Positions 10,202 through 29,202 of a stretch of DNA of 64,000 nucleotides are shown here, in pieces. The position numbers were made by a program, and so were the translations under genes. The stretch spans positions 77,242 through 141,241 of the forward strand of contig BTVJ01000013.1 in assembly GCA_045863395.1 (NCBI GenBank), read 5' to 3'. The notes below the pieces were generated by a model. It was not told the DNA's origin and ran no database searches. It worked only from the letters and a program-made list of their open reading frames with translations. Position 1 is the first letter of the stretch. Every line of letters starts with the position of its first letter. This DNA is from Myxococcales bacterium. Its GTDB lineage: Bacteria; Myxococcota_A; UBA9042; JABWCM01; BTVJ01.

Positions 10202-10261
10202 CAAACCGGGGCCCCCGGTGTAGTGGTTGCGGGGGGGCCACTGAGCCGGGAGGATACAGCA

Positions 10262-13200: not shown

Positions 13201-14518
13201 CGACTGGCCGGAGCAGGACTTCGATCCGGCGACCGCAGGGGCTCAAGGCAAGGGGCTGACCTACCACGTAAAGGGCGAGACCATCCCCTGGTCTGGCGGC
13301 TGCGGCGTGATCCGGGGCCTGGGCAGCGAGGTGTGGCTCTTCAACGGTGACGCAGCGGTGCGCTTCGACACGGCGACCCTGACGCAGGGCACGGGCCAGG
13401 TGACCTTCGACCCCGACCCTGCGAACCCCACGGCGCGTGTCTGCACGGGCGCGCTGGCGCAGGTGGGCGGCAAGACGCTCCTGTACGGGGTCAACGTGGA
13501 TCTGAAGCCCACCCCGCTCCTCTTCGTGGCCGACGTGACGGGCCTCTCCGGGAACGTGGCGGCGGCTCCGGTCACCAGCCCCTTCTTCGCCCCGATGCCA
13601 GGCGCGGACCCTTACACCGTCCGGTACGTGCAGGCGCTCATCCACGACGGGGAGCTGTGGCTCCTCGAGCGCAACGACCCCTGGAACAACCTGCGCAACG
13701 CCGTCCACCGGGCCCCGATCGGCGCCGACGGGAGCCTGGCCTTCGACATGAGCCGCGCGTCGGACATCGTCGCAGGCTGGACCACCAGCGGAGACCCGGG
13801 GATGGTCCTCGCCCCCGTCCTCGGCACGCCCCACCTGTTCGTCGGCAACCAGGGGTCGATCAGCGTCTTCGACGTGTCCGGGCCACCGGTGCGCCTCAAC
13901 TACAACACGGACGGCGATGGCGTGCAGGACGACCTGGACACCGCCTGGTATGGCCGCGGCATCCAGGCCTTCGCGGTCTCGCCGGACGGGGCGCGGCTGT
14001 ACGCGCTCCCCTGGGAGAAGAGCGGCGCGCTCCCCCATGCGACGTTCACGGTTCCCCTCGTGGGCGGGGGCAAGGCCAAGACCACCGCGGACCGCTACCG
14101 GGCGGTGGTCATCGATCTGACCAAGGCGCTGCCCGTGCCCGACCCGGCGGTCAACAACGGCAACGGCGTCGATCTCAACTGGTACTGGTTCAAGCAGCTC
14201 ATCGCGGCGTCGGGCGCCTCACCGCTGCCGCCCATGTTCCCGACCTACCGCCGGCAGCTCGCGGCGTCGGCGAAGTCGCTGTTCCTGGTCGGCTTCGACA
14301 ACGACGACGGCGCCGGCTCTGCGCTGGCCAACGGGGCGGACGTCGCGACCTTCGACCTGGCCACCGGCAAGGGGCACCTCTGGCGCGGCTACGAGTACCA
14401 GGGCATCTCCAACGCCGCGGGCCTGTGGGGCTATGACCTGGGCGTGAGCGGCGGCGTGGACGACGCGAACCTCAAGGGCGGGCGTGCGAAGAACGCGGGG
14501 GTGCTGTTCGTGCCGTAG
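10262..14518 (+). CDS. Very large lipoprotein: acidic tether, Cys-rich module, two Big_2 Ig-like domains and two copies of an unassigned beta-rich domain
   Basis: SD GGAGG; lipobox AVSC; Big_2 motifs ITWASSDPTI and ITWSSSDPAVAVV; internal duplication at about 11516-13003 and 13115-14515. Confidence 0.8.
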   Translation: MKSERLVALICAVATLLAVSCGGGHDVASDITIPSDTGSGGDGDTLGADATDDSGGAAGDAAIDDTADATSAADAGDSTPSPDSGDSANADTAQPGCGSDADCPATQHCGAGACIDDICAQGTVACKDGDIWECNASGSGETKAADCQGLGCEDAACLGPAWIEIAPLGTDIVAVGQSLTLTATAWDPAGAPVSVPITWASSDPTILDATGAGVVTGLVAGGGDKLAPDGTLVVTATAGGTTESIALQVVQLDQGSGLQFVQVALSADPGSDGRAHYDGVYQTKTSPPVNACNPYGAGPCSWHVADARVFAGADIEVQALGAGKWSSFGKGLLEYPALVNADGLAVAPPAPRPLAITWSSSDPAVAVVEGGFVRGVSPGAATIGATIGPQTWTLDVVVYDQYGYHPTDGFVSGVDPEDGHLVLFSSSAGAAIAGTHDAVRYVDLADYRNLDFRPSQHGPQGVRLVEHLGGTFEKHPGFGCGMVQGAGSVVWLFNGWTAIPFDTATATQVGGLHKVMWRPDGAATGANAVCSGVFVKAGGRDWLIGFDAKPTTYAAFVADVTDLVTGDVTAIGVDDALFTQSPALEFYSPTLWDDGADQWLLFMEQTPKNDATKPNKLRAARLTASGGSLLVEPDTTRTIETAPTPNAPDDQGEAPALIVASAGGAPFVFVGNKDGVTVIDAVAWDIVHMGPAGSIDPALQDLDTRRFGQNIKAFALSPDGATLYALPETSYPVAPFFNTKVEWKNANGATQSTNMTVHRLALIDLTGALPRLMVDPATDPSECFLVAGCTAEQRQYGYDLNLLALKRWMLDTGFAPSTGAILPPQAMNVRQLAVGENAVFLIGRDNPDGVGTALGNLSDVAVIDLATGRMPVFRGWRSDPGKLLGLSDPFGFRVGEGDALLGDARVKNAGVLYVAGPPPAEKAGDGAPHGEDAPMEHTGAYADAPAPASEPGHLLLLSSSHQKASDGTHDVVRRLDLSKADWPEQDFDPATAGAQGKGLTYHVKGETIPWSGGCGVIRGLGSEVWLFNGDAAVRFDTATLTQGTGQVTFDPDPANPTARVCTGALAQVGGKTLLYGVNVDLKPTPLLFVADVTGLSGNVAAAPVTSPFFAPMPGADPYTVRYVQALIHDGELWLLERNDPWNNLRNAVHRAPIGADGSLAFDMSRASDIVAGWTTSGDPGMVLAPVLGTPHLFVGNQGSISVFDVSGPPVRLNYNTDGDGVQDDLDTAWYGRGIQAFAVSPDGARLYALPWEKSGALPHATFTVPLVGGGKAKTTADRYRAVVIDLTKALPVPDPAVNNGNGVDLNWYWFKQLIAASGASPLPPMFPTYRRQLAASAKSLFLVGFDNDDGAGSALANGADVATFDLATGKGHLWRGYEYQGISNAAGLWGYDLGVSGGVDDANLKGGRAKNAGVLFVP

Positions 14519-14532
14519 GGCGCGAAGGGGGG

Positions 14533-15318
14533 TCAGGTGGGGTCCTCGATGCCGTGCTGGCGGAGCAACGCCAGGAGCCGCTCCGCCCGCTCGCGCTCCG
14601 CTTCCGCGCGCGCGTGCTCCGACTCGGCGCGCTCGCGCTCGGCCTCGGCGCGCGCGCGCTCGGCCTCGGCGCGCTCCGCCCCGGTCGGGACCGGCTCCCC
14701 GTCGAGGTGCCAGCGGAGCCAGCGGGCCCTCACGCCCTCGAAGGTGCCCTCCCAGGGGCGGAGCTCCAGCCCTACGTTCGGGAACACGAGCGGCGACATG
14801 GTCACGTACAGGTCGCCGCTCAGGCGGAAGCCGACGAGCTCCTCGGACAGGGCGATGAGCGCCGGGTCCCACACCACGTAGTAGGCGACCCGCATGCGCG
14901 CGTAGCCGCGGCGCCGCTTCTTGAGCTCGCCGCCCTTGCGGTTGGACACGACCTCGATGACCACGTCCGGGGGCTTGCCCATCTCCCAGACGAAGTAGGT
15001 GTTGTGGCGTTTCTCGGCCGCGAAGTCGGGATTCACCGCCACATCGAGGCTGAGCATCGCGTCCGGCACCAGCGGGCGCTCGGCGGGCGAGGAAAACACC
15101 CCCACGTTGGCCATGGCCACGAAGGATCGACGCCCGCCCTCCTCGTCGAGGGGACCGGACCACGAGGAGAAGAGGGGCTCGGTGAGCAGGCGCTGCTGCT
15201 TCTCGGAGTAGATCCCGTCCACGGGCTCGTCGTCCTCGATCTCGATGTGGCTGATGTCGGGCGGCTCGACGAGCGGCTCGTCCGGCGGTGGCTTCAGGTT
15301 GGCGAAGGGGTCGATCAT
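14533..15318 (-). CDS. Uma2-family (PD-(D/E)XK-like) putative endonuclease with C-terminal coiled coil
   Basis: PLVPDAMLSLDV, WEMGKPPDVVIEVVS, YYVVWDP, WLRW, and an AERAEAERARAE tail. Confidence 0.85.
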   Translation of the reverse strand: MIDPFANLKPPPDEPLVEPPDISHIEIEDDEPVDGIYSEKQQRLLTEPLFSSWSGPLDEEGGRRSFVAMANVGVFSSPAERPLVPDAMLSLDVAVNPDFAAEKRHNTYFVWEMGKPPDVVIEVVSNRKGGELKKRRRGYARMRVAYYVVWDPALIALSEELVGFRLSGDLYVTMSPLVFPNVGLELRPWEGTFEGVRARWLRWHLDGEPVPTGAERAEAERARAEAERERAESEHARAEAERERAERLLALLRQHGIEDPT

Positions 15319-15324
15319 GGGGAC

Positions 15325-15353
15325 AGGATGGGAGAGTCCCGCGGGCGGGTCAA
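15325..15353 (-). promoter_or_regulatory. Candidate leaderless promoter for the Uma2 gene
   Basis: Minus strand: TTGACC (15353-15348), 17 nt spacer, CATCCT (15330-15325), 6 nt, then ATG (15318); no SD. Confidence 0.5.
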
Positions 15354-15399
15354 GGGTGATCATGGCGACGGGAGGGGACCTCCACGCGGCCGCCCGCAG

Positions 15400-15427
15400 T
15401 TGCCTTCCGCTCCCTGGTCTGTATCAT
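15400..15427 (+). promoter_or_regulatory. Candidate sigma70-type promoter for the YARHG gene
   Basis: TTGCCT (15400-15405), 16 nt spacer, TATCAT (15422-15427). Confidence 0.45.
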
Positions 15428-15487
15428 CGTGCAGGCCCGGCGCCGTCGGGACAAGCCAGACAACCTGCGCCTCCCCGCGCCCCACCG

Positions 15488-16528
15488 ATGGAGCTCCTCA
15501 TGCGGCTCGCTGCGCGCCTCGGCCTCGCCCTGGCACTCCTGGCATCCCCCGCGCTCGCCAACGACGGTGAGTTCTACGGTGCGGGAGCCACGGTCTACCC
15601 GGTCACGAACAGCGCCATCTCCATGGACACCGAGACGCTGGTCATCGAGCAGCGCGGCCCGCTGTCCACCTACGTGGACCACTGGCTGGTCAACGTGCGC
15701 TACGAGTTCGTCAACACGACGGACGCTCCGGTGACGGTCCAGATGGGCTTCCCCGAGCACTGCCAGCGCACGGTGGATGACATGGACGTGGAGAGCCCGT
15801 CCTGCAAGAAGCCCGCGATTCGCGACTTTACGGCCCGCATCGACGAGCAGCCCGTCAAGGTCACCATCAAGACCCCGAAGAAGGAGGAGGCGGGCGCCCT
15901 GCCCGGCACCGTCTTCGACCGGGTCCACACCTTCCCCGTCAGCTTCAAGCCCAAGGAGCGGGTGGTCGTGGAGCACTCCTACACCCACCGGGGGCGCATC
16001 ATCAGCCCCATGCACAGCGGCATCGACTACATCTTGCGCACCGGCGGGCTCTGGAAGGGGCCCATCCGCGACTTCGACATGCGCATCGTGCTCAAGGGCA
16101 AGTGGGGCGAGATCCTCGACGAGAACGAGGAGGGCAAGCGCCTCCCCAAGCCGACGTTCGAGGGGTGGCAGGGCGGCACCTACCAGATGCGCTGGCAGCT
16201 CAAGGACTTCACGCCGGCCGCCGACGTCGCCTTCCTGCTGCAGGAGCCCCTGGTCGTGATGGCGCGAGAGGACGTGCTCCGGCCCGCCATGCTGGCGGCG
16301 GAGGAGGACCCGGCCTCCCTGGACGCCAGGTCTGCCGAGGAGCTGCGGCTCCTGCGGAACCTGCCCTACGCCCTGCTGGGCTACACGTTCAAGGACGCCG
16401 GCCTGCGCGCCCACTTCGAGAAGCAGCCGTGGTATGCGGCGCGGGCGGACTTCGACGACAAGTGGCTCGGCAAGGACGACCGCGCGTTCATCGAGCGCGT
16501 CAAGGCCGCGGAGAAGCGCAAGAAGTAA
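15488..16528 (+). CDS. Secreted DUF4424-like protein with C-terminal YARHG domain
   Basis: Signal peptide ending PALA-ND; YEFVNTT...MGFP and YILRTGGLWKGPI motifs; YARHG-like ELRLLRNLPYALLGYTFKDAGLRAHFEKQPWY. Confidence 0.75.
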   Translation: MELLMRLAARLGLALALLASPALANDGEFYGAGATVYPVTNSAISMDTETLVIEQRGPLSTYVDHWLVNVRYEFVNTTDAPVTVQMGFPEHCQRTVDDMDVESPSCKKPAIRDFTARIDEQPVKVTIKTPKKEEAGALPGTVFDRVHTFPVSFKPKERVVVEHSYTHRGRIISPMHSGIDYILRTGGLWKGPIRDFDMRIVLKGKWGEILDENEEGKRLPKPTFEGWQGGTYQMRWQLKDFTPAADVAFLLQEPLVVMAREDVLRPAMLAAEEDPASLDARSAEELRLLRNLPYALLGYTFKDAGLRAHFEKQPWYAARADFDDKWLGKDDRAFIERVKAAEKRKK

Positions 16529-16537
16529 GGGGCTCGG

Positions 16538-17785
16538 CTACCCCGCCTCCACCACCACGGTCCCGATGAGCGTCCTCAGCGCCTGCTCCACCACCGCAGT
16601 GTCCGGGTGGCGGACGATGGCGTAGCCCTCCCCCTCGTAGCTCGTGCTGCGCTGCTGCCCGGCCAGCGGGAGCTTGGCCTCGACGACCAGGTGCCCCACC
16701 GCGCGCTGCGCCTCGTCCAAGCCCCGCACCGCGGCGATCCTGCTGCCGTGACCCTGGGCGCGGAAGAAGGCCACCCCCGCCGCGTACTTGCGCTCGGGCG
16801 GGGTGAAGCGCCCGAAGACGGCCAGCTCCGCCCAGACCCGGATGAAGTCCACGTCGTGGGCGTAGCTGTTGAGCGCCATGATCTGCGCCCCCGGCGGCCG
16901 CGCCGCCACCTCGCTGATCGCCACGGACCCGTCGGGGCGGCGGAACCACTCCATGTGGCTGATGCCGGTCTTCATGCCCAGCGCCGCGAGGGCCTTGTGC
17001 CCGTAGGGGCGGATCGCGCGGATCTCGTCGTTGTCCACCTCCCGGGGGAGGCTGACCGTCCACTGGATCCAGCCGTTCTCCAGCACCACGAGCGGCGGCG
17101 GCTCGTAGCGGGTCTGGGAGTCCCACACCGGCCGGCCGTCGATGCTGACGGTCTCGAAGGAGCGCTCCTGGCCGATGACCATCTCCTCGATGACCCACGG
17201 CGTCTGAGGGGTCGGGCGGGCGTGGCCGAGGACCCGCTCCAGCTCATCCATGCGGTTGATGCGGCTCGTCGCCACGGAGCCCGCCCCGGCCAGCGGCTTG
17301 AACACCACCGGCAGCCCCAGCTCCGCCACGAAGCGCCGCGCGTCGTCCGGCGCCTCGACGCGTGCGTGCCTCGCGCAAGGCAGGCCCGCCGCCCGCAGCA
17401 CCTCCTTCATGCGCGCCTTGTCGCGGAAGTTGCGCGCCGCCTCCAGGCCCATGCCGCCTGCGCCGCCGGGCCCGGAGATGCCAAGGGCGTCGCGCACCGC
17501 GGCGATCTGCTCCTGGAGCTGCTCCAGGGTCCCGATCAGGCGCACCGTGTGCGGCTCGGCGCCGAGCTGCCCCGCCACGTGGCGCACCGCGCGGGCCAGC
17601 TCGTTCGCGTCCATGGCGTCGTGGACCCGATAGTGGCCGCGCAGGGCGCCCCGCAGCACCGGCGGCAGGGACTCCAGCGCGTCCTGGCTGATCAGGCCGA
17701 GGCGCACGCCCGGCAGCCCCGCGACCGTGGCGACGAAGCGTGTGGTGGCCTCCAGGAAGAAGGGGGCGGCGAAGATCACGTTCAT
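16538..17785 (-). CDS. ATP-grasp carboxylate-amine ligase-like protein (paralogue A)
   Basis: FRDKARMKEVL, PVVFKPLAGAGS, IEEMVIGQE, SHMEWF and SEVAARPPG. Confidence 0.85.
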   Translation of the reverse strand: MNVIFAAPFFLEATTRFVATVAGLPGVRLGLISQDALESLPPVLRGALRGHYRVHDAMDANELARAVRHVAGQLGAEPHTVRLIGTLEQLQEQIAAVRDALGISGPGGAGGMGLEAARNFRDKARMKEVLRAAGLPCARHARVEAPDDARRFVAELGLPVVFKPLAGAGSVATSRINRMDELERVLGHARPTPQTPWVIEEMVIGQERSFETVSIDGRPVWDSQTRYEPPPLVVLENGWIQWTVSLPREVDNDEIRAIRPYGHKALAALGMKTGISHMEWFRRPDGSVAISEVAARPPGAQIMALNSYAHDVDFIRVWAELAVFGRFTPPERKYAAGVAFFRAQGHGSRIAAVRGLDEAQRAVGHLVVEAKLPLAGQQRSTSYEGEGYAIVRHPDTAVVEQALRTLIGTVVVEAG

Positions 17786-17794
17786 GGGCGCTCC

Positions 17795-18523
17795 CTATGT
17801 GAGCTCGTTCAGGTAGTACGGCAGCATGACCCGCCAGGTGGGCCAGTCGTGGTCCCACTCGTGGCCCCACAGGATCACGCGGTTGGGCACCCCCCGGCTC
17901 CCGAGCGCGTTGGCGATGCCCCAGGCCTGGCCCGGGCTCTCCCAGCGCCCCTGGCCCGAGACCAGCAGGACGAAGCGGCGCCGGAGCTGCTCCAGGAGGG
18001 GGCCCTCCTCCATGTAGGGCAGGAAGTGCACCGGCGACGACACGTGGAAGTCGAAGGTGTGCTCGCCGTTGTTCCAGGGCGAGAGATCATAGGTGCCGCT
18101 CATGCCGATGGCCGTACAGAAGGCGTCCGGGTGGCGGCACAGCGCGGCGACTGCGTTGAAGGCGCCGAAGCTCGCGCCCGCGGTGATGATCTCGATGTCG
18201 TCGCTCTTGCAGTCGGTGCGGATGGCCGGCACCAGCTCCTGCGCCACGAACTCGTCGAAGCGGTTCTGCATCCACGCCTTGTGGGCGCCGGACGCGCCGC
18301 TGTCCACCCAGGTGCGGCCCGCCACGCTGTCACAGGAGTAGACCTTGATGCGCCCCGCCTCGATGAGCGGCCAGAGCGCCGCGATGAGGCGCATGCGCTC
18401 GGCCTCCTCGCAGTCGCCGCCGGCGGTGGGGAACAGCAGCACCGGGCGGCCGTAGGTGCCGTAGCGAACGACGCCCACCTCGCGCCCCACCCGGTTCGAG
18501 TACCAACCAGTCTTCAGCTTCAC
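17795..18523 (-). CDS. Alpha/beta-hydrolase esterase
   Basis: GTG start in a GTGA overlap with the upstream stop; LLFPTAGGD, nucleophile elbow GASFG, and HDWPTW. It is the C-terminal part of track ORF 17795..19822. Confidence 0.85.
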   Translation of the reverse strand: MKLKTGWYSNRVGREVGVVRYGTYGRPVLLFPTAGGDCEEAERMRLIAALWPLIEAGRIKVYSCDSVAGRTWVDSGASGAHKAWMQNRFDEFVAQELVPAIRTDCKSDDIEIITAGASFGAFNAVAALCRHPDAFCTAIGMSGTYDLSPWNNGEHTFDFHVSSPVHFLPYMEEGPLLEQLRRRFVLLVSGQGRWESPGQAWGIANALGSRGVPNRVILWGHEWDHDWPTWRVMLPYYLNELT

Positions 18524-19785
18524 GCGCTCGCCTCCTTGGTGGCGGCGAGCCGGTCCGCCTCCGTCTTGCACCAGAACTGGATGAGCCCGAAGAAGTGGTC
18601 CGTGAAGGTCTCGACCTCGTGGGCGGGGTAGAGCGCCGCCACCTTGGCCCGGACGATGTCCTTGGCCTCGCCGGTCCGGAAGAACTCCAGGGCCACCTCG
18701 TTCAGGTGCGGCAGGTGCGTCCGGCAGAACTCGGCGAAGCGGTCCGCCTCCATGCGCTCCCGCGCGATGGCGGCATACTCCCGCAGGCGATCCCGGTAGG
18801 GCAGGTCCTTCTTGGCGACCTGGTAGAAGGGCTCCCAGTGCATGTTCTGGCGCATGGGCCGCTTGGTGTAGGCGCAGAACAGCGACCACCGGATCATGCG
18901 CTTGACCATCTCCGGGAAGTGGTAGTGGAGCGACGTGACCTGGAAGTCCGGGCAGGCGTTGGCGAAGTCGATGGGGTAGAAGGTCCCGTTCTGGCGCAGC
19001 GCCTCGCAGGAGTTGAACTCCCACCCGAAGAAGGAGTTGATGGTCAGCGTGGTGTCCGTCAGCAGCGACCACTCGTCGGCGTCCGCGAAGTAGTAGTCGA
19101 CCATGTAGCGGGCGTGGAGCGGGGCCGACGGGTCGTAACGCACGATGTAGATCTGGGGCCCGACGCCGATGCAGCGGACGAACAGGTCGAAGGGCTCGAC
19201 CGCCTTCTGCAGGTGCATGACGTGCTTGCCGGACTTCTCGTAGGCCTGGCGCAGCGCCTGCTCGTCGTCGATGCGGCTCACTCCCACCCAGGCGCCGCCG
19301 TCGTAGGGCTTCATGAACATGGGGTAGCCGAGCTTCTGGCCGATCTGCCCGAGGTCGAACAAGCGGGCGTAGCGCGCCAGGGTCGGCTTGATGTCGGCCG
19401 AGTCCGGGTGCTCCTTCGGCGGGACGAGCCACGTCTCCGGGATGGGCATGCCCAGCTTCATCATGGCGACGTAGGTGGAGTGCTTCTCCATGGACTGGAG
19501 CGACCACGGGTTGTTGAGCACGTACAGCCCGTCGAGGATGACGGCCTTCTTGATCCACTCGCGGCTCGTGTTGAACCAGTGGGTCAGGCGGTCGAGCACC
19601 ACGTCGTAGGAGCACGGCTGGCGCAGATCGAACGGCTCGACCGTCACACGGTCCACCGCGAAGCGCACCACGTCGTCGCCGAGCGGCAGCGACAGCTTCA
19701 GGCGGTCGATGATCGCCTCGTAGCAGGCGGGCCAGCACAGGTCGGCGCCCAGGGAAAGACCGATCTTTCTCGTCACTTCGGCCAA
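18520..19785 (-). CDS. RimK/glutathione-synthetase-like ATP-grasp protein
   Basis: TTG start with SD GGAGGAGG; VLNNP, LGMPIPETWLVP, YPMFMKPYDGGAWVGV, LQKAV and IDFANACPD. Confidence 0.8.
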   Translation of the reverse strand: MAEVTRKIGLSLGADLCWPACYEAIIDRLKLSLPLGDDVVRFAVDRVTVEPFDLRQPCSYDVVLDRLTHWFNTSREWIKKAVILDGLYVLNNPWSLQSMEKHSTYVAMMKLGMPIPETWLVPPKEHPDSADIKPTLARYARLFDLGQIGQKLGYPMFMKPYDGGAWVGVSRIDDEQALRQAYEKSGKHVMHLQKAVEPFDLFVRCIGVGPQIYIVRYDPSAPLHARYMVDYYFADADEWSLLTDTTLTINSFFGWEFNSCEALRQNGTFYPIDFANACPDFQVTSLHYHFPEMVKRMIRWSLFCAYTKRPMRQNMHWEPFYQVAKKDLPYRDRLREYAAIARERMEADRFAEFCRTHLPHLNEVALEFFRTGEAKDIVRAKVAALYPAHEVETFTDHFFGLIQFWCKTEADRLAATKEASA

Positions 19786-19820
19786 GGGTTCCTCCTCCAG
19801 CAGGTCGCGGATCGCGACGC

Positions 19821-19848
19821 ATTGTGCCTGGATTTTTGGGGAAGTCGA
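19821..19848 (-). promoter_or_regulatory. Candidate internal promoter for the RimK-like/esterase/ATP-grasp sub-operon
   Basis: Minus strand: TCGACT (19848-19843), 16 nt spacer containing an A5 tract, CACAAT (19826-19821), in the 97 bp intergenic gap. Confidence 0.35.
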
Positions 19849-19882
19849 GAGGGGACCGGGGGCGGGCGCGTAATCGGAGGCG

Positions 19883-21016
19883 CTACTCGTAGACCATCCA
19901 GACGGGCCCCGGGTACAGATAGGAGAGGCCGGCGCGCAGCCGGTCGCGCCAGTTCTCCCAGTTGTGGCCGTCGCGGGCCTCCTCGAAGCGCACGGACATG
20001 CCCGTGTCCTGAAGGAGCGGCACGATGGAGCGGTTCTCGTAGATCAGCGACTCGTACTGGCCGCAGCTCAGGAACACGCGCTCGCTCGGCCTCCCCGGGG
20101 CCTCGCGAAATGCATTGACGAACTCCACCACCTTGTCGAAGAGCGGGCCGCGCCAGTGCGTGCCGATGTCCGTGAAGGCGAAGGAGCCCGATTGGAGCAG
20201 CAGGCGCCCGAAGACGCCCGGGTAGCGCCAGGCGGTCGCCAGAGACGCCACCGCGCCGAAGCTCGCCCCCATCAGGCCCCGGTGGGACGCCTGCTTGTAG
20301 AGGGAGTACCGGGCCTCCAGGGCCGGGAGCAGCTCCTCGACGACGAAGCGGGCGTGGCCCGGGTGGTCCGCGTACTCCGACAGACGATCACCGGGGTGAG
20401 AGAGGGCCACGACCAGGGGGGCGATCTCCAGCCGGTGGATCAGGTTGTCGAGCACCGTCTGGAGGCTGGCGTAGCGCACGTAGTCGCCGCCGTCGTGCAC
20501 GACCAGCAGGCGGTAGCGCCGGGTCGGGCGAAAGCGGGCGGGCAGGTACACCGTCACGCGCCGGTCTCCCCCGAGGGCCGCCGACCGGACGCGCAGCTCT
20601 TGCAGGGTCCCCGGCCGTGCCTCCTTGTCCGGCCTGGCCCACTCGGGGGGCGCGTAGTCCGCCCCCTGGCAGACCGAGTTGCCGCCGTATGGATCCATGG
20701 CCTTGTGCGGGTTGAGCGGGTCCTGGATCCACTCGCCGTGGCCGTTGCGGTGGACGTCGAGCTTGTACTCCACCCGGGAGCGCGGCGGGAGCTCCAGCAC
20801 CAGGTACCACAGGTCCGTGCCGTCGATGCGCGCGAAGGGCTGGTCCGAGCCGAGCCCGTAGACCCAGTGCCGCAGGCTGACCCGCTCCGCCTCGCCACGC
20901 CACACGAAGGTGACCTTGCTGCCTTCGAGGATGGGGAAGGTGTGGTCCCGCAAGAAGGCATCGATGACGTCACGGCTCGGGCGCCCCTTGGTCAGCGCGT
21001 GGATCGCCAGGTTCAT
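19883..21016 (-). CDS. Enterochelin-esterase (Fes)-like alpha/beta hydrolase with N-terminal E-set/CBM48-like domain
   Basis: ATG in an ATGA overlap with the upstream gene; VTFVWRG...LWYLVLEL...EYKL...DPLNP N-terminal domain; VYLP, VHDG, GASFG and GHNW. Confidence 0.85.
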   Translation of the reverse strand: MNLAIHALTKGRPSRDVIDAFLRDHTFPILEGSKVTFVWRGEAERVSLRHWVYGLGSDQPFARIDGTDLWYLVLELPPRSRVEYKLDVHRNGHGEWIQDPLNPHKAMDPYGGNSVCQGADYAPPEWARPDKEARPGTLQELRVRSAALGGDRRVTVYLPARFRPTRRYRLLVVHDGGDYVRYASLQTVLDNLIHRLEIAPLVVALSHPGDRLSEYADHPGHARFVVEELLPALEARYSLYKQASHRGLMGASFGAVASLATAWRYPGVFGRLLLQSGSFAFTDIGTHWRGPLFDKVVEFVNAFREAPGRPSERVFLSCGQYESLIYENRSIVPLLQDTGMSVRFEEARDGHNWENWRDRLRAGLSYLYPGPVWMVYE

Positions 21017-21939
21017 GCGCCCTCCACGGGCACCACGGCCCCGTCGGTGGTCAGCCGGCACGTGGGGCCGTTGGCAGTCCACCCCTTCGCCAGGGTGGCG
21101 GCGCACCCGTCGTCCAGCGCAAGGCACAGCGCCGGCGCGAAGCGGCGCGCCAGCAGCGACACCCGCTGCGGGTCGTCCAGGTTGAGGCGGCTGCTGGCGT
21201 GGGGCAGCGCGACGACCCCCGGGGCGAGGCCCAGGCCGCGGCTCAAGATCTCGGCGTTGCCGGCCCCCTGCGGCGGGTTGTCGTGGAACAGCACGATGCG
21301 GTCCGTGAGCACCATGGCGCCAGCGCTCCAGCCGACGAGGGGCTTTGCTGCCAGGAGGCTCGTCAAGCCAAAGAGCCGAATGCGGTTGATCAAGGACGCA
21401 ACGTGGCCCCCCGCGATGGCAACTGCATCACATTCGCTGAGAATGCTCGAAATCTCTTCGACATGGTGTTGAATGGACGGCCTCCGGGCCAGACCCACCG
21501 CCGCCTCGTACTCGTGCTCGATGCCCTCCATGCGCGCCACGTGCCGCTTGTCGAGCGCCCGGATGGTGCGCATGGTCGCCTCCAGCTCCGGCTCGATGAG
21601 GTCCGCGGGGGCGTCGATGCGCTGGAGCCGCTTCGCCGCCGTGAGCGCGGCCTCGAGCTGGAGCCGGTAGAGGTCCTGCAGGCGGTGCAGACGGTCCTGC
21701 TTGGTGCGGTGGGCCGTGAAGAGCGTCTGGTCCTCGCGGAAGGCCGCGTCGGCCCGCGCGTGCAGCGCCAGGTTGGTCGTGCGGTTGCCGAGGAACCGGG
21801 ACAGCTCGCCGTCTTCGGCCTCCCGCTCCTGCCAGCCCGCGCTGATCACCGCGATGCGCCCGCGGACGCCCAGCAGCTCGAACGCCGTGCCCACCGTCCT
21901 GATGCGACGTTGCGGGCCGAGGAGGACTCGTTGCATCAT
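21013..21939 (-). CDS. Peptidase S51 (peptidase E/cyanophycinase-like, class I glutamine amidotransferase fold) with helical insertion
   Basis: AIAGGH, nucleophile motif GWSAGAM, GLGL...LPHA and ALDD; SD GGAGG. Confidence 0.75.
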   Translation of the reverse strand: MMQRVLLGPQRRIRTVGTAFELLGVRGRIAVISAGWQEREAEDGELSRFLGNRTTNLALHARADAAFREDQTLFTAHRTKQDRLHRLQDLYRLQLEAALTAAKRLQRIDAPADLIEPELEATMRTIRALDKRHVARMEGIEHEYEAAVGLARRPSIQHHVEEISSILSECDAVAIAGGHVASLINRIRLFGLTSLLAAKPLVGWSAGAMVLTDRIVLFHDNPPQGAGNAEILSRGLGLAPGVVALPHASSRLNLDDPQRVSLLARRFAPALCLALDDGCAATLAKGWTANGPTCRLTTDGAVVPVEGA

Positions 21940-21986
21940 CGTGGCGTTCCTCCGGATCGCGAGACCCTTCGACGCAGGATGAGCCC

Positions 21987-23207
21987 ATGCACGTGATCTT
22001 CGTCGCCCCCCACTTCCCAGCGTACCAGGCCAGCTTCGTGCGCGCCCTCAAGGCGGCCGGCGCGGGCGTCACCGGCATCGGCGAGCCGCCCGCCGAGTGG
22101 CTCCCGGACCACATCAAGGGCCTGCTCGACGGCTACGAGCAGGTCCACAACGTCACCGACGAGCAGGCGCTGCTCGACGCGGTGCGCCGCATCCAGGGGC
22201 GCGGCTGGGTGGACCGGCTGGAGGCGACCATCGAGGCGCACATCCTGCCGACCGCCCGCGTGCGGGAGGCGGCGGGCATCCCCGGCCTGACCGTGCGCGC
22301 CGCGACCCTGTGCCGCGACAAGCCGCTCATGAAGGAGGCGCTGCGCGAGGCGGGCGTAGCGACGGCGGCGTCGGCGGGCGTCTCCACCTCTGCGGAGGCC
22401 CGCGCCTTCGTCGAGGCGGTCGGCTACCCGGTCATCGTCAAGCCGCGGGCCGGGGCCGGGGCGGCGGGGACGTCCAAGTGCACGAACGACGACGAGCTCG
22501 CCCGGGCCATCGCCGAGCACCGCCTCGACCACGGCGGCGCGGCCGCCATCGAGGAGTTCGTCAGCGGGCACGAGGGCTTCTACGACACCCTGAGCATCGG
22601 CGGCACCGTGGTGCTCGACTTCGTGAGCCACTACTACCCGAACGTGCTGGAGGCCATGCGAACCCGCTGGATCTCGCCCCAGATCGTCGCGACCAACCGC
22701 ATGGACGCACCCGGCTACGACGAGGTCAAGGCGCTGGGCCAGGCGGTGGTCACGGCGCTGGGCATCGGCACGTCGGCGACCCACATGGAGTGGTTCTTTG
22801 GCCCGAAGGGGCTGCGCTTCAGCGAGATCGGCGCGCGGCCGCCCGGGGTCGGGCAGTGGGACGTGTACTGCGCCGCCAACGACCTGGACCTGTACCGGGA
22901 GTGGGCCAACGCGGTGTGCTGGCGCCGCGTGGAGCACGGGCCCTCTCGGCGCTTCGCGGCGGGCATCATCGCGCTGCGCCCCGATCGGGATGGCCGCATC
23001 GTCGGTTACAGCGGCGTGGACGAGCTGCACCAGATGTTCGGCCCGTGGGTCATCGACGCCCACCTGCCGCCGGCCGGGACCCCGACGCAGCCCGTCGAGG
23101 CGGGCTACATGGCCAATGCGTGGGTTCGGCTGCGCCATCCGGACTACGACGTCCTCCGCGAGATGCTCGACACCGTCGGGCGCACCCTGAAGGTCTACGC
23201 CGCCTGA
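21987..23207 (+). CDS. ATP-grasp carboxylate-amine ligase-like protein (paralogue B)
   Basis: CRDKPLMKEAL, PVIVKPRAGAGA, IEEFVSGHE, THMEWF and SEIGARPPG. Confidence 0.85.
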   Translation: MHVIFVAPHFPAYQASFVRALKAAGAGVTGIGEPPAEWLPDHIKGLLDGYEQVHNVTDEQALLDAVRRIQGRGWVDRLEATIEAHILPTARVREAAGIPGLTVRAATLCRDKPLMKEALREAGVATAASAGVSTSAEARAFVEAVGYPVIVKPRAGAGAAGTSKCTNDDELARAIAEHRLDHGGAAAIEEFVSGHEGFYDTLSIGGTVVLDFVSHYYPNVLEAMRTRWISPQIVATNRMDAPGYDEVKALGQAVVTALGIGTSATHMEWFFGPKGLRFSEIGARPPGVGQWDVYCAANDLDLYREWANAVCWRRVEHGPSRRFAAGIIALRPDRDGRIVGYSGVDELHQMFGPWVIDAHLPPAGTPTQPVEAGYMANAWVRLRHPDYDVLREMLDTVGRTLKVYAA

Positions 23208-23268
23208 GCCGCCGAAGATACCGGCCGAGCCACGGCCTCGCAACCGGAGCGCTGCTCCGAGGTGACCC

Positions 23269-24495
23269 ATGAGCGCCATGAAGGTCCTGTTCGTGTCTCC
23301 CCACTACCCCGACGAGATGCAGGGGTTCGTGCGCGGCCTCGCCGAGGTCGGCGCCACCGTGTACGCGGTCGGCGACGTGCCCGAGCAGCAGCTCCCGGGC
23401 CACGTGCGCCGCTACCTGAGCGGGTACATGCAGGTCCATGACCTGTTCGACGAGCACGCGCTGGCCCGCCAGGTGGTGCCCATCGCCGGGCGCCTGGGCC
23501 TCGACCGCATCGAGGCGCTCTGGGAGCCCGTCGTCCTCGGGGCGGCGCGCCTGCGGGAGGAGCTCGGCGTGCCCGGCATGAGCATGGAGACGGCCATCGG
23601 GTTCCGCGACAAGGCGGTCATGAAGGAGCGCCTCGTTGCGGCGGGCCTTCGCGTGCCCCACTTCGCGCGGGTGACGACGGCGGCGGCGCTGCGGGAGGCC
23701 GCCGAGCGCATCGGCTACCCCCTGATCGTCAAGCCCATCGACGGAGCGGGCACCAGGGACACCTACAAGCTGGACGGGGAGGCGGACCTGGAGGCGGTGC
23801 TCCCGCGGCTCGGCCACCTGCCCGACGTCAACGTGGAGGAGTTCATCGAGGGCGACGAGTTCACCTACGACGCGGTCTCCATCGACGGGGTGCCGGTCTT
23901 CGACAGCGTCGCCCAGTACCACCCGAAGCCGCTGGAGGCGCGGTCTCAGGAGTGGATCAGCCCCATGCAGATCGTCTTCCGCGACCCTCACGTGCCGGAG
24001 CTGGCCGCCGGAGTGGCGCTGGGGCGCGACGTGCTGAAGGCGCTCGGGATGGGCACGGGCTTCACCCACATGGAGTGGTATCGGAAGCCGGGCGGGGAGG
24101 TGGTCTTCGGCGAGATCGCGGCGCGAGCGCCGGGCGGGCGCCTCGTGGATCAGATGAACTACGCCAACGACTTCGACGTGTACCGGGAGTGGGCGCGCAC
24201 CGTGTGCTGGCGCTCGTTCGACGCGACGCCGCATCGGCGCTACCACGTCGCGACGATCTTCAAGCGAGCGCAGGGCCAGGGGCGCATCGTGGGCATGACG
24301 GGGCTCGACGCGGTGCGCGCCCGGTGCGGCAGCTCGCTGGTCCTCGTAGACCTGCTCCCGGTCGGGGCGCCACGGCGCGACTGGCGCAGCACCCTGCTCT
24401 CCGACGGCGTCGTCACCCTGCGCCACCCGGACTACGCGGAGTGCAAGGCCATGGCCTGGGCGGTGGTCAACGATCTGCGGCTGTACGCGGGCTAA
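23269..24495 (+). CDS. ATP-grasp carboxylate-amine ligase-like protein (paralogue C)
   Basis: SD GAGGTG; FRDKAVMKERL, PLIVKPIDGAGT, VEEFIEGDE, THMEWY and GEIAARAPGG. Confidence 0.85.
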   Translation: MSAMKVLFVSPHYPDEMQGFVRGLAEVGATVYAVGDVPEQQLPGHVRRYLSGYMQVHDLFDEHALARQVVPIAGRLGLDRIEALWEPVVLGAARLREELGVPGMSMETAIGFRDKAVMKERLVAAGLRVPHFARVTTAAALREAAERIGYPLIVKPIDGAGTRDTYKLDGEADLEAVLPRLGHLPDVNVEEFIEGDEFTYDAVSIDGVPVFDSVAQYHPKPLEARSQEWISPMQIVFRDPHVPELAAGVALGRDVLKALGMGTGFTHMEWYRKPGGEVVFGEIAARAPGGRLVDQMNYANDFDVYREWARTVCWRSFDATPHRRYHVATIFKRAQGQGRIVGMTGLDAVRARCGSSLVLVDLLPVGAPRRDWRSTLLSDGVVTLRHPDYAECKAMAWAVVNDLRLYAG

Positions 24496-24620: not shown

Positions 24621-24698
24621 ATGCACTTGATCCCTCCTGAGGAGTGCTCGACACACGACGCGGTCGCGCCGCTTGACTTGCGAGGGGCTGGCCCTTGA
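24621..24698 (+). CDS. Candidate 25-aa small ORF (MHLIPPEECSTHDAVAPLDLRGAGP)
   Basis: SD GGAGGT at 24604-24609; its stop overlaps the kinase TTG start (TTGA, 24695-24698). Confidence 0.3.
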   Translation: MHLIPPEECSTHDAVAPLDLRGAGP

Positions 24699-27421
24699 GC
24701 GCCCCCTCCCGCAGCCAGGCGCCGACGGAGGGCGGCGACCCCATGCAGGGCGCCCCCGCGCTGCCCGTCGGCGCGCTCGTGGCGCGCCGATATCGCCTGG
24801 AGTCGGTGCTGGGAGTGGGGGGCTTCGCCTGGGTCTATGCCGCTACGGACCTGCTCGGCGGTGAGCGGGTCGCCGTCAAGATCCAGCTCCTGAGCCCTGG
24901 GATCGATCTCAGGCGCATCCGGCGCGAGCTGGCTGCCATGCGGCTCCTGCGCATCCCCGGCGTGGTGACCCTGCTGGACGACGGGGTCGAGGGCGACCAC
25001 TACTACCTGGTCATGGAGCTCGTCGAGGGTGCCCCGTTCAGCGGCGCCGGCGGCTGGCCCACCATCGCGGAGGTCGTGGTGGGCCTCCTCGAGACGGTCG
25101 CCCGAATCCATGCCGCAGGCGTCGTCCACCGGGACCTGAAGCCGGGCAACGTGCTGGTGACCCCGGAGGGGCGCCCCGTCGTGCTCGACTTCGGCCTCGC
25201 CATGGGGCCGGGCGTCGGGCGCTCCGTGGCCCCCGTGGAGGGGGTCGTGGGTACGCCGGGCTACATCGCCCCCGAGCAGATCCAGGGGGGAAACGCGGGG
25301 CCTCAGGCCGACCTCTACGCGGTCGGCGCCATGGTCTACGAGGCGCTCTGCGGCCGCACGCCGCTCCAGGGCGACACGTGGCAGGAGACGCTGATGGCGC
25401 GTCTGGTCGCGGACCCTGAGCCCATCGGCCAGCGGGTGCCCGGGCTCGATCCCGCCGTGGCGGCCCTCGTCGACCGCCTCGTCGCCCGTGAGCCGGGCGC
25501 CCGGCCGGCCAGCGCTTCGGATGCGCTGGCCGTGCTGGCCGGGGCGCCGGGCGTGCGGCGGGCGCCCGTGACCTGGCCGTGGGTGCCGGGCGACCGCGCC
25601 GGCACCGGGGGGGCCCCCGAGACCTCGCGGCTGTCCGCCGCGGACCTGAGGTCGCTCATCGCTGGGCCCGAGCGCTTGCTACACCTCCAGGAGGACGGCG
25701 CGCGGCTCGTCCTCGAGCGCACGGGCGGGCTGCCCGGCAACGTGGAGCGAGAGCTGGCCGCGTGGGTGCGCGCCGGCCTGGCAGCCTGGCACGAGGGGCG
25801 TCTGTCGCTGGGCCGAGGCGCCCTGGAGCGCCTGCGCGCCAGCCCTCCAGTCCGCCACAGCGAGGCCTCGGGTGGCGCGGACCTGCTGTCGGCCCTCGGC
25901 GAGGCGCACCGGGACCTCATCGGGTGGCTGGAGCTCGCGTGGCCGCGCACCCAGGCCGAGCACCTCGCCGCGGTCACGGGCCTGCCGTCGTGGCGCGTCC
26001 GCGGGTACGTCGAGGCGCTGGCCCACCTCGGGCTGCTGGTCCGCTCCCGCGACGGGCGGGTGGCGGGCATGGCGGTGGCGGGCGTGGCGTCGGCCTGGAG
26101 CGAGCAGCGCCGCCGTGAGGCCCACCGCAGGCTCGCCGCGGCGCTGCCCGCCGGCGCCGAGGGGCGGCTCCACCACCTGGTCGCCGCTGGGGAGCTCGCA
26201 GAGGTGGGTGCCGAGGCTGCCGCGCGAGGGCTGGCGCTGGCCGGCGAGGGCCTCCTGGGCCCGGCAGCGGCCGCGCTCGAGGAGGGGCTCGGCCCGGCGA
26301 GATTGCACGAGGACGCGGCCGGCGAGGGGCGCCTTCTGGAGCTCCTGTGCGAGGTGTCCCTGTCCCTCGGGACAGAGCACGCTCTCGACCGGGCGCTCTA
26401 CGAGCTGGAGAGGGCCTGGACCCGGTCACCGCGAATCGCACGCCTGGAGGGCCTCGTGCGGGCGAGCCTGGGCGCGATGCGCGCCGTCGGCCAGGCTTCG
26501 CTGCTGGTCGCCGAGTCCATCCGCCCCTTCGTCGAGGAGCCGCTGGAAGAGGGGCGCATGGTCGCGCGGCTGCGCGCTGCTCGTGGCTGCCCCGTGGCGG
26601 AAGAAGAGCGGGTGCTCGCGGATGCGGAGACCTGGGCGGCCGGCGGGAGCCCCCGGGCACGGGCGCTGGCCCTGATGTGGAGGGCGCTCTACCAGTATCG
26701 CGTCGGGCGCTTCCAGGAGGCCGCCGACACCCACCTCGCCGCGCTGCGGGTCGGGCCGCCGCCACACCTCTGGCTCGCCATCTCGGTCAACGCGGCCTCG
26801 GCGCTCCTGGAGGCCCACGACCTGGACGGGGCCATCTCCATGGCAGCGAGGGCGGCCACCTTTGCCGCGCGACTGCGCCACCCGCTGCAGGAAGGCCGCG
26901 CGGAGAGGGTGCGGCGCGTCGCCCTGTATCGGGCGGGGCGAGCGACCGAGCCGGACCTCGACCTGGTGGAGGGAGCAGAGGCGGTCGGCCAGCCCGACCT
27001 CCTCGCCATGGTGTGTCTCAACGAGGCCGGCGTGGCGCTGCGGGGAGGGCGCCTGGAGCTGGGCGGCGTCCTGGCGTCGCGCGCCGCGGCCGCCTGGACC
27101 CGCATGGGCCGCACTTGGGAAGGGGCCCTCGTCCGCGCCCTGGCCGACGGCTGCATGGGCGCGAGCAGCCCGGCGCTTCGCCGCGAGATCGTGCAGGGGG
27201 CGCTGGAGTGCACCACCGCCATGATGCCGCTCCAGGCCCTCGCCCTCTGGGCGACGGCCGAGCCCCTCGACGCGCAGGAGCAGGCGGTCGTCCGAGCGTT
27301 GGCGGATCGCATCCCGCCGGCGGCGTGGGAGCTGCGCGCGGACGTTCTGTCCCCCCGCGAGGCGGTCGAGTTGGCGCTGGGGCGCGGGCGCCTCGAGGAT
27401 CTCGTGGACGCCAGGAGCTGA
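24695..27421 (+). CDS. Hanks-type Ser/Thr protein kinase with long helical (TPR-like) C-terminus
   Basis: LGVGGFAWVY, VAVK, HRDLKPGN, DFG, GTPGYIAPE and DLYAVG. Alternative start is the ATG at 24743. Confidence 0.88.
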   Translation: MSAPSRSQAPTEGGDPMQGAPALPVGALVARRYRLESVLGVGGFAWVYAATDLLGGERVAVKIQLLSPGIDLRRIRRELAAMRLLRIPGVVTLLDDGVEGDHYYLVMELVEGAPFSGAGGWPTIAEVVVGLLETVARIHAAGVVHRDLKPGNVLVTPEGRPVVLDFGLAMGPGVGRSVAPVEGVVGTPGYIAPEQIQGGNAGPQADLYAVGAMVYEALCGRTPLQGDTWQETLMARLVADPEPIGQRVPGLDPAVAALVDRLVAREPGARPASASDALAVLAGAPGVRRAPVTWPWVPGDRAGTGGAPETSRLSAADLRSLIAGPERLLHLQEDGARLVLERTGGLPGNVERELAAWVRAGLAAWHEGRLSLGRGALERLRASPPVRHSEASGGADLLSALGEAHRDLIGWLELAWPRTQAEHLAAVTGLPSWRVRGYVEALAHLGLLVRSRDGRVAGMAVAGVASAWSEQRRREAHRRLAAALPAGAEGRLHHLVAAGELAEVGAEAAARGLALAGEGLLGPAAAALEEGLGPARLHEDAAGEGRLLELLCEVSLSLGTEHALDRALYELERAWTRSPRIARLEGLVRASLGAMRAVGQASLLVAESIRPFVEEPLEEGRMVARLRAARGCPVAEEERVLADAETWAAGGSPRARALALMWRALYQYRVGRFQEAADTHLAALRVGPPPHLWLAISVNAASALLEAHDLDGAISMAARAATFAARLRHPLQEGRAERVRRVALYRAGRATEPDLDLVEGAEAVGQPDLLAMVCLNEAGVALRGGRLELGGVLASRAAAAWTRMGRTWEGALVRALADGCMGASSPALRREIVQGALECTTAMMPLQALALWATAEPLDAQEQAVVRALADRIPPAAWELRADVLSPREAVELALGRGRLEDLVDARS

Positions 27422-27534
27422 GGCGGGCGGCGCGGGGGCGAAGGTCCGCTGCCAACCGGGCCGGGCGTTCATCCCGCAGGAGACTCGACGCGCGCGCCAA
27501 CGCGGAGGCGGGCGTGTCACCCAGGCGCGCCCTC

Positions 27535-29202
27535 TCAGAGCGGCGAGTACACGCGCGCCGGCCGGCGGTGCTCCACCATCCCCTCGGCCGCGTGGGCGAG
27601 GCGCAGCAGCAGGGCTTCGTCCCAGGGGCGCCCGATGGCCTGGAGGCCCACCGGGAGGCCGTCGGCGTCCCAGCCCGCCGGGAAGGAGATGGCCGGGAGG
27701 CCGGTGAGGTTGGCCAGGGGGGCGTAGCGCATGATGCGACCGAGCAGCTCCAGGTTGGACTCGCCGCTCTGCAGGGCGTCCCGGGGCAGCGGGGGGGCCG
27801 TGCAGCCGGTGGCGGGCGTCACGATGGCGTCCACCCCGCTCAGGAGCGAGAGCATCTGGCGCACCATGCGGGCGCGCACCCGCTGGGCCTGGACGTAGTC
27901 GGCGCCGCCCATGTCCCGCGCCAGGGCCAGGTTGATGCGCACGTCCGGGCCGTAGTCGGCGCCGTGCGCTTTGAGCCAGGGGAGCTGGGAGGCGACCATC
28001 TCCACGGCGATGGTCACCATGTGCGCGATGGAGGCGAGGCGCAGCCCCTCGATGCTCACCTCGCGGATGGTCGCCCCCGCCGCCCGGAGCCCGTCCAGGA
28101 GGCGCTCGCAGGCCGTGACGACGCCCGGGTCCGCGTCCTCGAACCACGGCTTGAAGACACCGAGGGTGACGCCGCGCAGGTCCTGGGAGCCCCCGAAGCC
28201 GGTGAGATGCGGCTTGGGCTGGCCCAGGGTGTGGGGGTCCTCCGGGTCCTCGCCGGCCATGATCATGTAGGCCGCGGCCGCGTCCCGGGCCGTGCCGGCG
28301 AGAGGGCCGATGTGCGCGACGCTCCAACACAGCGGGGCGGCGCCGTGCTCACTCACACGGCCGAAGGTGGGCTTCAGGCCGACCAGACCGCACAGGGCGG
28401 CGGGGATGCGGATGGAGCCGCCGCCGTCGGCGCCCAGGGCCACGGGGCAGAGGCCGGCGGCCACGGCGGCAGCCGAGCCGCTGGATGAGCCCCCAGTGGC
28501 GCGCGCCGGGTCGAAGGGGTTGCGCGCCGGCCCGTGGTGCGGGTTGAGGCCCGTGACGCCCAGGCCGATCTCGTGCATGTTGGCCTTGCCGAAGAGCAGC
28601 GCCCCGGCGGCCCGCAAGCGCGCGACGGTCGTCGCGTCGGCGGTGGCGGGCGCCGAGCCGTGGAACCGGGTCCCCACCGTGGTCGGGTAGCCCCGCTGGT
28701 CCACCTCGTCCTTGATGGCGACGGGCACGCCGTCGAAGGGGCCGAGCGGGCGGCCGGCGCGCCAGCGCTCTGCGGATCGCTCGGCTTGATGGAGCAGGTC
28801 GTCGGGCTGCTGCGCGATCAGCACCCGCAGGGCCGGCTCCTCCCGCTCCGACGCGGAGAGCGCGTCGAGCAGCCGTCGCGCAACGTCCACGGGTGAGCGG
28901 CCCTCCTCGGCGTAGGCACGCCGGTAGTCCGCGAGGGTCGCCCAGGGGTGGCCCACCGGGGTCGGCCCCGCCACCACCTCGTCGAGCGTGGGAGAGGCTG
29001 GCGGTGCGCTCGTCCCGGAGAATCGCGGCTCGAACTGAGGGGGGTCGTCGATCTGCGCAGTGCGCAGCAGGTCCACGCCTACCTGGCGCAGGAGCTGCTC
29101 TCGCAAGAGCGAGCCAGCGCGCGGGCGGGACGCGAGGGCGGCCAGGGCGCGCAGCGCCGGTCCGGCGAGGCGCGGGGCGCGGATGGGTTCGAGGTCGTAC
29201 AT
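27535..29202 (-). CDS. Amidase signature family enzyme (fatty acid amide hydrolase-like)
   Basis: GVPVAIKD, GGSSSGSAAAVA and LGADGGGSIRIPA supply the Lys-Ser-Ser triad motifs; SD GGAGG. Confidence 0.92.
   Translation of the reverse strand: MYDLEPIRAPRLAGPALRALAALASRPRAGSLLREQLLRQVGVDLLRTAQIDDPPQFEPRFSGTSAPPASPTLDEVVAGPTPVGHPWATLADYRRAYAEEGRSPVDVARRLLDALSASEREEPALRVLIAQQPDDLLHQAERSAERWRAGRPLGPFDGVPVAIKDEVDQRGYPTTVGTRFHGSAPATADATTVARLRAAGALLFGKANMHEIGLGVTGLNPHHGPARNPFDPARATGGSSSGSAAAVAAGLCPVALGADGGGSIRIPAALCGLVGLKPTFGRVSEHGAAPLCWSVAHIGPLAGTARDAAAAYMIMAGEDPEDPHTLGQPKPHLTGFGGSQDLRGVTLGVFKPWFEDADPGVVTACERLLDGLRAAGATIREVSIEGLRLASIAHMVTIAVEMVASQLPWLKAHGADYGPDVRINLALARDMGGADYVQAQRVRARMVRQMLSLLSGVDAIVTPATGCTAPPLPRDALQSGESNLELLGRIMRYAPLANLTGLPAISFPAGWDADGLPVGLQAIGRPWDEALLLRLAHAAEGMVEHRRPARVYSPL

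Follow-up and report, generated by a model that had tools for sequence, protein, structure and literature searches.

Seven genes at positions 16538-24495 of a 64,000-nucleotide stretch from a Myxococcales bacterium (contig BTVJ01000013.1, positions 77,242 to 141,241; the whole stretch is hereafter called the window) constitute a conserved module found in several bacterial phyla, without being an obligate unit. They encode an orphan ATP-grasp protein (R), a small and a large serine esterase, an S51-fold protein and three ATP-grasp paralogues (A, B and C). The module is real, widespread and uncharacterised; its parts are of known kinds and their combination has no known product. Its gene content, the intact catalytic residues of the ligases and esterases, the folds of R and the S51 protein, a core of three genes and, within the genomes searched, the strict association with glycogen genes are established directly. 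We infer, every chemical step included, that the module carries out a reversible, ATP-dependent acylation of glycogen or of a glycogen-derived sugar, with amino-acid ligases extending the acyl group, and give this reading a probability of about 0.45.

A three-gene core conserved across phyla

Among 360 pattern-matched stretches from GTDB, 302 encode a relative of R, a conservation far above chance. The best 80 of the 302 were kept as loci, a set that favours close relatives (45/80 are labelled Myxococcota). Within 10 kb of R, these loci contain the large esterase in 68 cases, the small esterase in 62, the S51 protein in 58, B in 47, A in 36 and C in 25, and all seven genes are found together in 17 of the 80 loci and in 12 of the 37 full-length ones. 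R is encoded by 17 of 61 genomes of the window's class, all 17 with at least three A/B/C genes, and by 8 of the 201 Acidobacteriota genomes sampled; it is matched in 40 of 301 Actinomycetota genomes, in five of which the sole match is a distant, shorter form. Among cultured bacteria, Paraliomyxa miuraensis SMH-27-4 carries B, the S51 gene, an esterase and R. R is accompanied by both esterases in 27 of the 32 Actinomycetota loci that were fetched, and neither the S51 protein nor any A/B/C relative was found in 26 of these 27 genomes. Thus, the core of the module consists of R and the two esterases. An earlier, sequence-only reading of this DNA had proposed an uncharacterised cytoplasmic make-and-remove system, with similar neighbourhoods in other bacteria. 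The system is supported and the full set does recur, although not obligately. All seven proteins score below the NCBIfam cut-offs. No characterisation of the module was found in the literature searched, by full text or by titles and the openings of abstracts and with few subscription papers covered. Parts of it may be mentioned in the survey by Iyer et al. (2009) of the gene neighbourhoods of ATP-grasp amidoligases.

Other recurrent neighbours in the 80 loci encode a GCS2-CBS ligase (33 loci), FGase-like (12) and AstE-like (10) hydrolases and an acetyl-CoA hydrolase (9). GCS2-CBS as an obligate member was ruled out by its distribution in the window's class, 7/17 R-positive versus 8/44 R-negative genomes; in the genome studied here, its gene is unlinked to the module (contig and positions C24:51298-53223). 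In nine loci that look closely related, R and the acetyl-CoA hydrolase/transferase gene are arranged head to head. Gene fusions were considered as a functional clue and discarded: the four matches among longer proteins read as frameshifted read-throughs or unrelated appendages, a weakly based rejection with only 8,000 candidates scored. Five Actinomycetota loci carry a shorter R-like protein (~315 aa, 27-32% identity) near one or both esterases, and in four of these an adjoining protein weakly matches a circularly permuted ATP-grasp family, possibly representing a sister system. Near the minimal module of 11 Actinomycetota loci lies glpX, the fructose-1,6-bisphosphatase gene, which may reflect lineage synteny or a link to gluconeogenesis.

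Association with glycogen genes

Glycogen genes are located at most 10 kb from R in 32 of the 80 loci (17/37 full-length loci), spread over seven phylum labels; GlgA is encoded in 29 loci, glycogen synthase/phosphorylase in 6 and GlgB in 5. When the three genome samples are pooled, glgA or glgB is present in all 65 R-positive genomes versus 260 of 498 R-negative ones. By sample, glgA is found in 17/17 R-positive versus 34/44 R-negative genomes of the window's class and in 8/8 versus 121/193 genomes of Acidobacteriota (one unpublished genome included), and glgB in 40/40 versus 105/261 genomes of Actinomycetota (36/36 R-positive genomes without four unpublished ones). Isocitrate lyase, used as a control in Actinomycetota, displays no comparable pattern (14/40 versus 65/261). 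Fisher tests, which treat genomes as independent, so that kinship makes all P values overstated, give 8e-15 for glgB in Actinomycetota, 0.049 and 0.053 for the other two samples and 0.18 for the control.

The genome studied here encodes glgC, glgB and two glgA. In a GlgA tree built with FastTree from 75 rows (midpoint root, SH-like support, no bootstrap or clade test), the second glgA, unlinked to the module (C16:92986-94434), sits among module-adjacent GlgA with a local support of 98, and the copy on contig C12 groups with that of the nearest relative. The branch enclosing the former (SH-like support 93) includes 28 of the 34 module-adjacent GlgA and none of the 26 GlgA from R-negative genomes. 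Two of these 26 come from genome G048 (73% complete), which carries genes for the S51 protein, an esterase, B and C, and the assembly may simply miss R. Adjacency to the module requires at least four changes on the tree, so different glycogen synthase lineages came to lie beside it. The C16 copy lies on another contig than the module, among unrelated genes. Four loci of Planctomycetota/Acidobacteriota have, inside the module, a GlgA lineage that diverges strongly from the others (branch length 1.85); in three of these loci a glycogen synthase-phosphorylase gene is nearby.

R, an orphan ligase with the RimK fold

R (18520-19785, minus strand, 421 aa), a member of the core, begins with a TTG codon preceded by the ribosome-binding site GGAGGAGG. 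Sequence searches place R only loosely, the sole Pfam match being one to Ddl below the cut-off. Its family is large, with 8,601 members in the corresponding Atlas cluster and 959 representatives, often fragmentary, at E<=1e-10. The predicted structure (pLDDT 89) is matched by Foldseek to RimK, ArgX and Ddl, with RimK-RpsF and ArgX-LysW also among the top matches. Following realignment of Foldseek's top 1,000 chains, RimK scores best (Z 19.4, rmsd 2.9, 259 aligned residues within residues 6-307), followed by ITPK1 (Z 17.8) and then by Asp1/PPIP5K, LysX and synapsin (Z ~17). The model has a RimK/LysX fold in residues 1-307 and an extra helical C-terminal part in residues 310-420. K159, E261, D273 and N276 show no variation among 73 close sequences and are retained by at least 90% of 15 more diverged ones. 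In alignment, E261 corresponds to the Glu in the HMEW motif of A, B and C, and the second metal site is D273-x-x-N276 instead of E-x-N.

This replacement at the second metal site, and the proximity of the ITPK1, PPIP5K and Asp1 kinases (Z 17-17.8, about 2 below RimK), would suit an ATP-grasp-fold hydroxyl kinase that phosphorylates a glucan or sugar, with the esterases and ligases doing something separate. A kinase of this kind would also fit the dependence on glycogen genes. We consider it very improbable, since RimK remains the best-scoring fold for R and since the two serine carboxylesterases of the minimal module, as well as the amino-acid-ligase paralogues, would be left unexplained.

Two serine esterases and the S51-fold protein

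The other two core genes encode serine esterases. In the small one (17795-18523, minus strand, 242 aa, GTG start, PF00756), Ser118, Glu195 and His225 are invariant in 62/62 sequences, and so are Ser252, Glu322 and His351 of the large, Fes-like esterase (19883-21016, minus strand, 377 aa) in 66/66. The nearest solved relatives of the large esterase are Fes (E 4e-23) and feruloyl/acetyl esterases of the CBM48-CE1 type. Across 49 members, its Enterochelin_N/CBM-like N-terminal domain matches Enterochelin_N 48 times, CBM20 29 times and CBM48 17 times at E<=0.1, the CBM matches being weak; it also matches the starch-binding domain of glucoamylase with an E of 4e-4. Glucan binding by the domain is doubtful. 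The sequence-only reading had raised acylation of a glucan as one of two options because of this domain; the option is now the better one on account of the glycogen co-occurrence, the adjacency and the glgA tree, although its original basis is doubtful.

The large esterase ends in PGPVWMVYE, which conforms to a tail of fixed length, PGPxWxVYE (xxYE-COOH). The final Glu is found in 69/73 loci outside Actinomycetota and is absent in 26/27 Actinomycetota esterases. Among 100 complete large esterases, 63 have both the YE tail and an S51 gene in the locus and 29 have neither; seven have the tail only, all of them within 190 bases of a locus edge, and one with S51 has a variant tail, ETYM. Tail and S51 are both present in all of 9 further loci. 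The YE tail is present in the sole Actinomycetota locus with S51 and missing from three S51-less loci of the first set. Although kin share such traits, the exceptions fall in the right direction, suggesting that the tail and the S51 protein are in physical contact.

The predicted structure of the S51 protein (21013-21939, minus strand, 308 aa) resembles cyanophycinase, peptidase E and a 'pseudo-CphB' entry (7UQV) with TM scores of 0.43-0.49, and includes a long helical insertion at about residues 59-168. The copy in this window keeps both catalytic residues, Ser205 and His247, in alignment with the peptidase E motif PH. In 57 homologues, the Ser is present in 52 and the His in 28 (missing in 29), with neither in five. 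Since catalytic residues are lost in many homologues, hydrolysis is unlikely to be the conserved role of this protein.

The esterase tail also bears on the idea of reversible protein modification or regulation, whereby R, in the manner of RimK acting on S6, would attach residues to a protein, for instance a glycogen enzyme, for the hydrolases to erase. RimK, RimK-RpsF and ArgX-LysW, the top folds for R, act on protein C-termini or carrier proteins, the large esterase itself ends in a conserved Glu, and a glycogen enzyme as target would account for the dependence on glycogen genes. The Glu tail is, however, absent in the 26 Actinomycetota esterases that accompany R and tracks S51, and for this reason was ruled out as the core substrate of R. 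Clustering of open reading frames (ORFs) revealed no recurring small carrier gene in the loci at 90-100 aa or longer, shorter ones being missed at this size, and amide-linked residues are not normally removed by esterases. Protein modification is therefore an improbable role for the module.

L-amino-acid-ligase-like paralogues A, B and C

A (16538-17785, minus strand, 415 aa), B (21987-23207, plus strand, 406 aa) and C (23269 or 23278 to 24495, plus strand, 408 aa) were recognised as paralogues from their sequences alone, and rightly so: they are 35-41% identical to each other and share the motifs RDK..MK, KP..GAG, HMEW, E-x-[AG]-A-R-x-P-G and RHPD (in A, HMEWF and EVAARPPG). A profile of 79 sequences finds the L-amino-acid ligases (Lals) RizA, BL00235 and BacD as the best solved relatives (E 2e-38 to 4e-23). 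The Ala/Gly in place of the Asn of E-x-N-x-R had been correctly observed but over-read as unusual. EIAMR of RizA, EVGAR of BL00235 and ESAAR of BacD align at this site, ruling out the 'missing Asn' as an oddity; E-x-[AG]-x-R is thus the signature of L-amino-acid ligases, not a loss. All of 108 sequences have the His, the two Glu and the Arg, and the same residues are aligned in the three Lals. By size, motifs and nearest solved relatives, A, B and C are L-amino-acid-ligase-like enzymes, making them candidate catalysts of peptide synthesis with new specificities. Lals join free amino acids into dipeptides, according to PMC6920838.

In a FastTree phylogeny of 108 proteins, A, B and C form one branch each with a support of 100, so that the three roles are old and have been kept apart, which bears out their suspected distinctness. 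Of the three, B varies least (59-73% identity in related loci); in 28 loci it is found immediately upstream of S51 and on its strand, and in 10 the two genes are divergent, as in this window. A fourth Lal-like gene of this genome (C1:14039-15256), 54% identical to C, has no module neighbours, and many relatives carry 4-6 Lal-like copies.

With ligases of this kind, the module might make and recycle a free amino-acid oligomer, polymer or osmolyte, that is, a nitrogen store resembling cyanophycin, the glycogen link being a matter of co-regulated storage. R has the fold of RimK, which can polymerise Glu (PMC6920838); the S51 protein shares its fold with cyanophycinase and peptidase E, with Ser205 and His247 retained in this copy; and the AstE-like (10/80), FGase-like (12/80) and GCS2-CBS (33/80) neighbours act on amide bonds, an AstE-related enzyme being a cyanophycin dipeptide hydrolase (PMC9974463). 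Nevertheless, the core stands alone, lacking a peptidase and A/B/C in 26/27 genomes, the S51 His is missing in 29/57 sequences and both Ser and His in five, and a co-occurrence in 65/65 genomes is not predicted by co-regulation. In addition, a true cyanophycin synthetase is already encoded elsewhere in this genome. A free oligomer is thus unlikely, if still deserving of serious weight, and the option of peptide or polymer storage, the other one offered by the sequence-only reading, is weakened.

Proposed function

The combination of an acyl-activating enzyme with two serine esterases and no peptidase in the core points to an ester bond, and a glucan or glucan-derived acceptor is suggested by the strict dependence on glycogen genes. 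Esters can be formed by some ATP-grasp enzymes, including VanA and the graspetide ligases, and PF00756 includes acyltransferases acting on sugars (antigen 85). For the reversible acylation of glycogen, R would activate a carboxylate as an acyl phosphate, and the acyl group would end as an ester on a glucan hydroxyl, placed there by R directly or relayed via the Ser of one esterase working as a transferase; the remaining esterase would take it off. In the full version of the module, A, B and C with different specificities would assemble or lengthen an acyl group made of an amino acid or short peptide, and the S51 protein would dock on the large esterase via the xxYE tail, trimming the released peptide or merely binding it. 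Glutamate would be the most likely building block, given the RimK fold of R and accessory neighbours all acting on acyl-glutamate bonds (the GCS2-CBS ligase and the AstE-like and FGase-like hydrolases).

Several points weigh against this proposal. Only the Actinomycetota test is strong, and the other two P values are ~0.05 even with genomes treated as independent; genome size or a feast-famine lifestyle can confound the co-occurrence of R with glycogen genes, for which one control gene was used. No glycogen gene adjoins the module in this window. Thirteen R-positive genomes hold only unlinked GlgA outside the module-linked branch, so that no special glycogen synthase is required, and a module-specific one was ruled out as a requirement. 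Three A/B/C genes but no match to R or glgA were found in genome G010, which is 91% complete. The nearest solved folds of R make amides (RimK), with hydroxyl kinases close behind. According to PMC8040265, starch was not bound by the CBM48 domains of related CE1 esterases. The 27 Actinomycetota large esterases, moreover, mostly do not retain the Lys and Trp that match the starch-binding domain. Finally, the case for glutamate is weak because GCS2-CBS occurs in no more than 7 of the 17 R-positive relatives of the class and also in 8 of the 44 R-negative ones.

Somewhat more tentatively, we propose that numerous bacteria of soil, sediment and sludge may ester-decorate glycogen with amino acids or short peptides, with R and the esterases writing and erasing the mark, A, B and C building the peptide and the S51 protein, in part a pseudo-enzyme, docking on the tail of the esterase. 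Bacterial glycogen is usually regarded as a plain glucose polymer, and a widespread module for making and breaking bonds that is seen only together with glycogen genes would imply either chemical decoration of glycogen or a partner storage compound. If our proposal is true, bacterial glycogen would have a covalent chemistry not described so far, one tying nitrogen to carbon storage or controlling granule turnover. A small part of the probability is reserved for readings not listed here.

Gene layout and genomic setting

The seven genes, their strands, two overlaps and the divergent gap are exactly as the sequence-only reading had described them. Stop and start codons overlap by 4 bp each between the small esterase and R (GTGA, 18520-18523) and between the large esterase and S51 (ATGA, 21013-21016), and a gap of 47 bp (21940-21986) separates S51 from B. 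Pfam confirms ATP-grasp for A, B and C, Esterase for both esterases, with Enterochelin_N in the large one, and Peptidase_S51. The third-position GC content (GC3) of the seven genes is 0.91-0.98, the same as in neighbouring genes. No 19-residue stretch exceeds a Kyte-Doolittle (KD) hydrophobicity of 1.51 and nothing is signal-like or membrane-like, so that all seven proteins look cytoplasmic. As had been claimed, the cluster in the window has no non-ribosomal peptide synthetase (NRPS), transporter or precursor gene, and gaps of at most 97 bp within it leave little room for a graspetide-type precursor-peptide gene. An RNA element, promoter or operator was sought and dropped: the cluster and its surroundings gave no Rfam match and no sigma-70-like site, and the 15 related divergent gaps, compared by eye, have no motif common to all. 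R has no match in PLSDB and thus no sign of plasmid carriage.

The flanks of the module (14533-16528 and 24695-29202) encode a Uma2-like endonuclease, an exported DUF4424-YARHG protein, a Ser/Thr kinase and an amidase. The DUF4424-YARHG gene ends 9 bp from A. Flanking genes were rejected as members of the system, the YARHG gene being present in 0/80 loci and the kinase matches being generic (30-37% identity). Further away, a plus-strand ORF of 1,431 aa (10223-14518) begins like a lipoprotein, and its C-terminal region appears to be duplicated. At least half of the sampled words of the stretch occur in four RNA runs from two studies; DNA carry-over is possible, and the runs are not counted as evidence.

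Comparison with known systems

A, B and C are like the L-amino-acid ligases RizA (4WD3), BL00235 (3VOT) and BacD/YwfE (3VMM) in length, H-x-E and E-x-[AG]-x-R, and have the size of this group of ATP-grasp enzymes, about 400-470 aa. They score 34-43 bits against a cut-off of 850 for BacD (NF053745). Instead of antibiotic biosynthesis and export genes, A, B and C have esterases and glycogen genes as neighbours, and they form three separate paralogue lineages. The model of R aligns with RimK, LysX and ArgX over ~260 residues (Z 17-19.4, rmsd ~3 A). Nevertheless, R is only 14-18% identical to them, has D-x-x-N, a helical extra part of ~110 residues and esterase partners, and scores 24 versus 143 bits for TIGR00768 and 23 versus 276 bits for TIGR02144.

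The large esterase shares the two-domain layout and the Ser-Glu-His residues of Fes and the CBM48-CE1 esterases. It scores 104 versus 222 bits for Fes (NF007758), has no signal peptide and carries the conserved xxYE tail, and its recurring neighbours include neither siderophore nor plant-polysaccharide genes. The cyanophycin system (CphA, CphB, CphZ) likewise combines an ATP-grasp ligase with an S51-fold protein and sometimes an AstE-like hydrolase. Unlike that system, the module has no Mur-ligase domain, reaching at most 34 bits of the 850 required by TIGR02068 and in the ATP-grasp part only, and its S51 protein is dispensable, often His-less and extended by the long helical insertion. The true cphA of this genome lies on another contig (C22:84990-89368) and scores above the cut-off; the next ORF matches only the C-terminal half of cyanophycin synthetase. 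By these comparisons, the module falls outside the cyanophycin system and the RimK, BacD and Fes models, yet resembles other ATP-grasp make-and-break systems.

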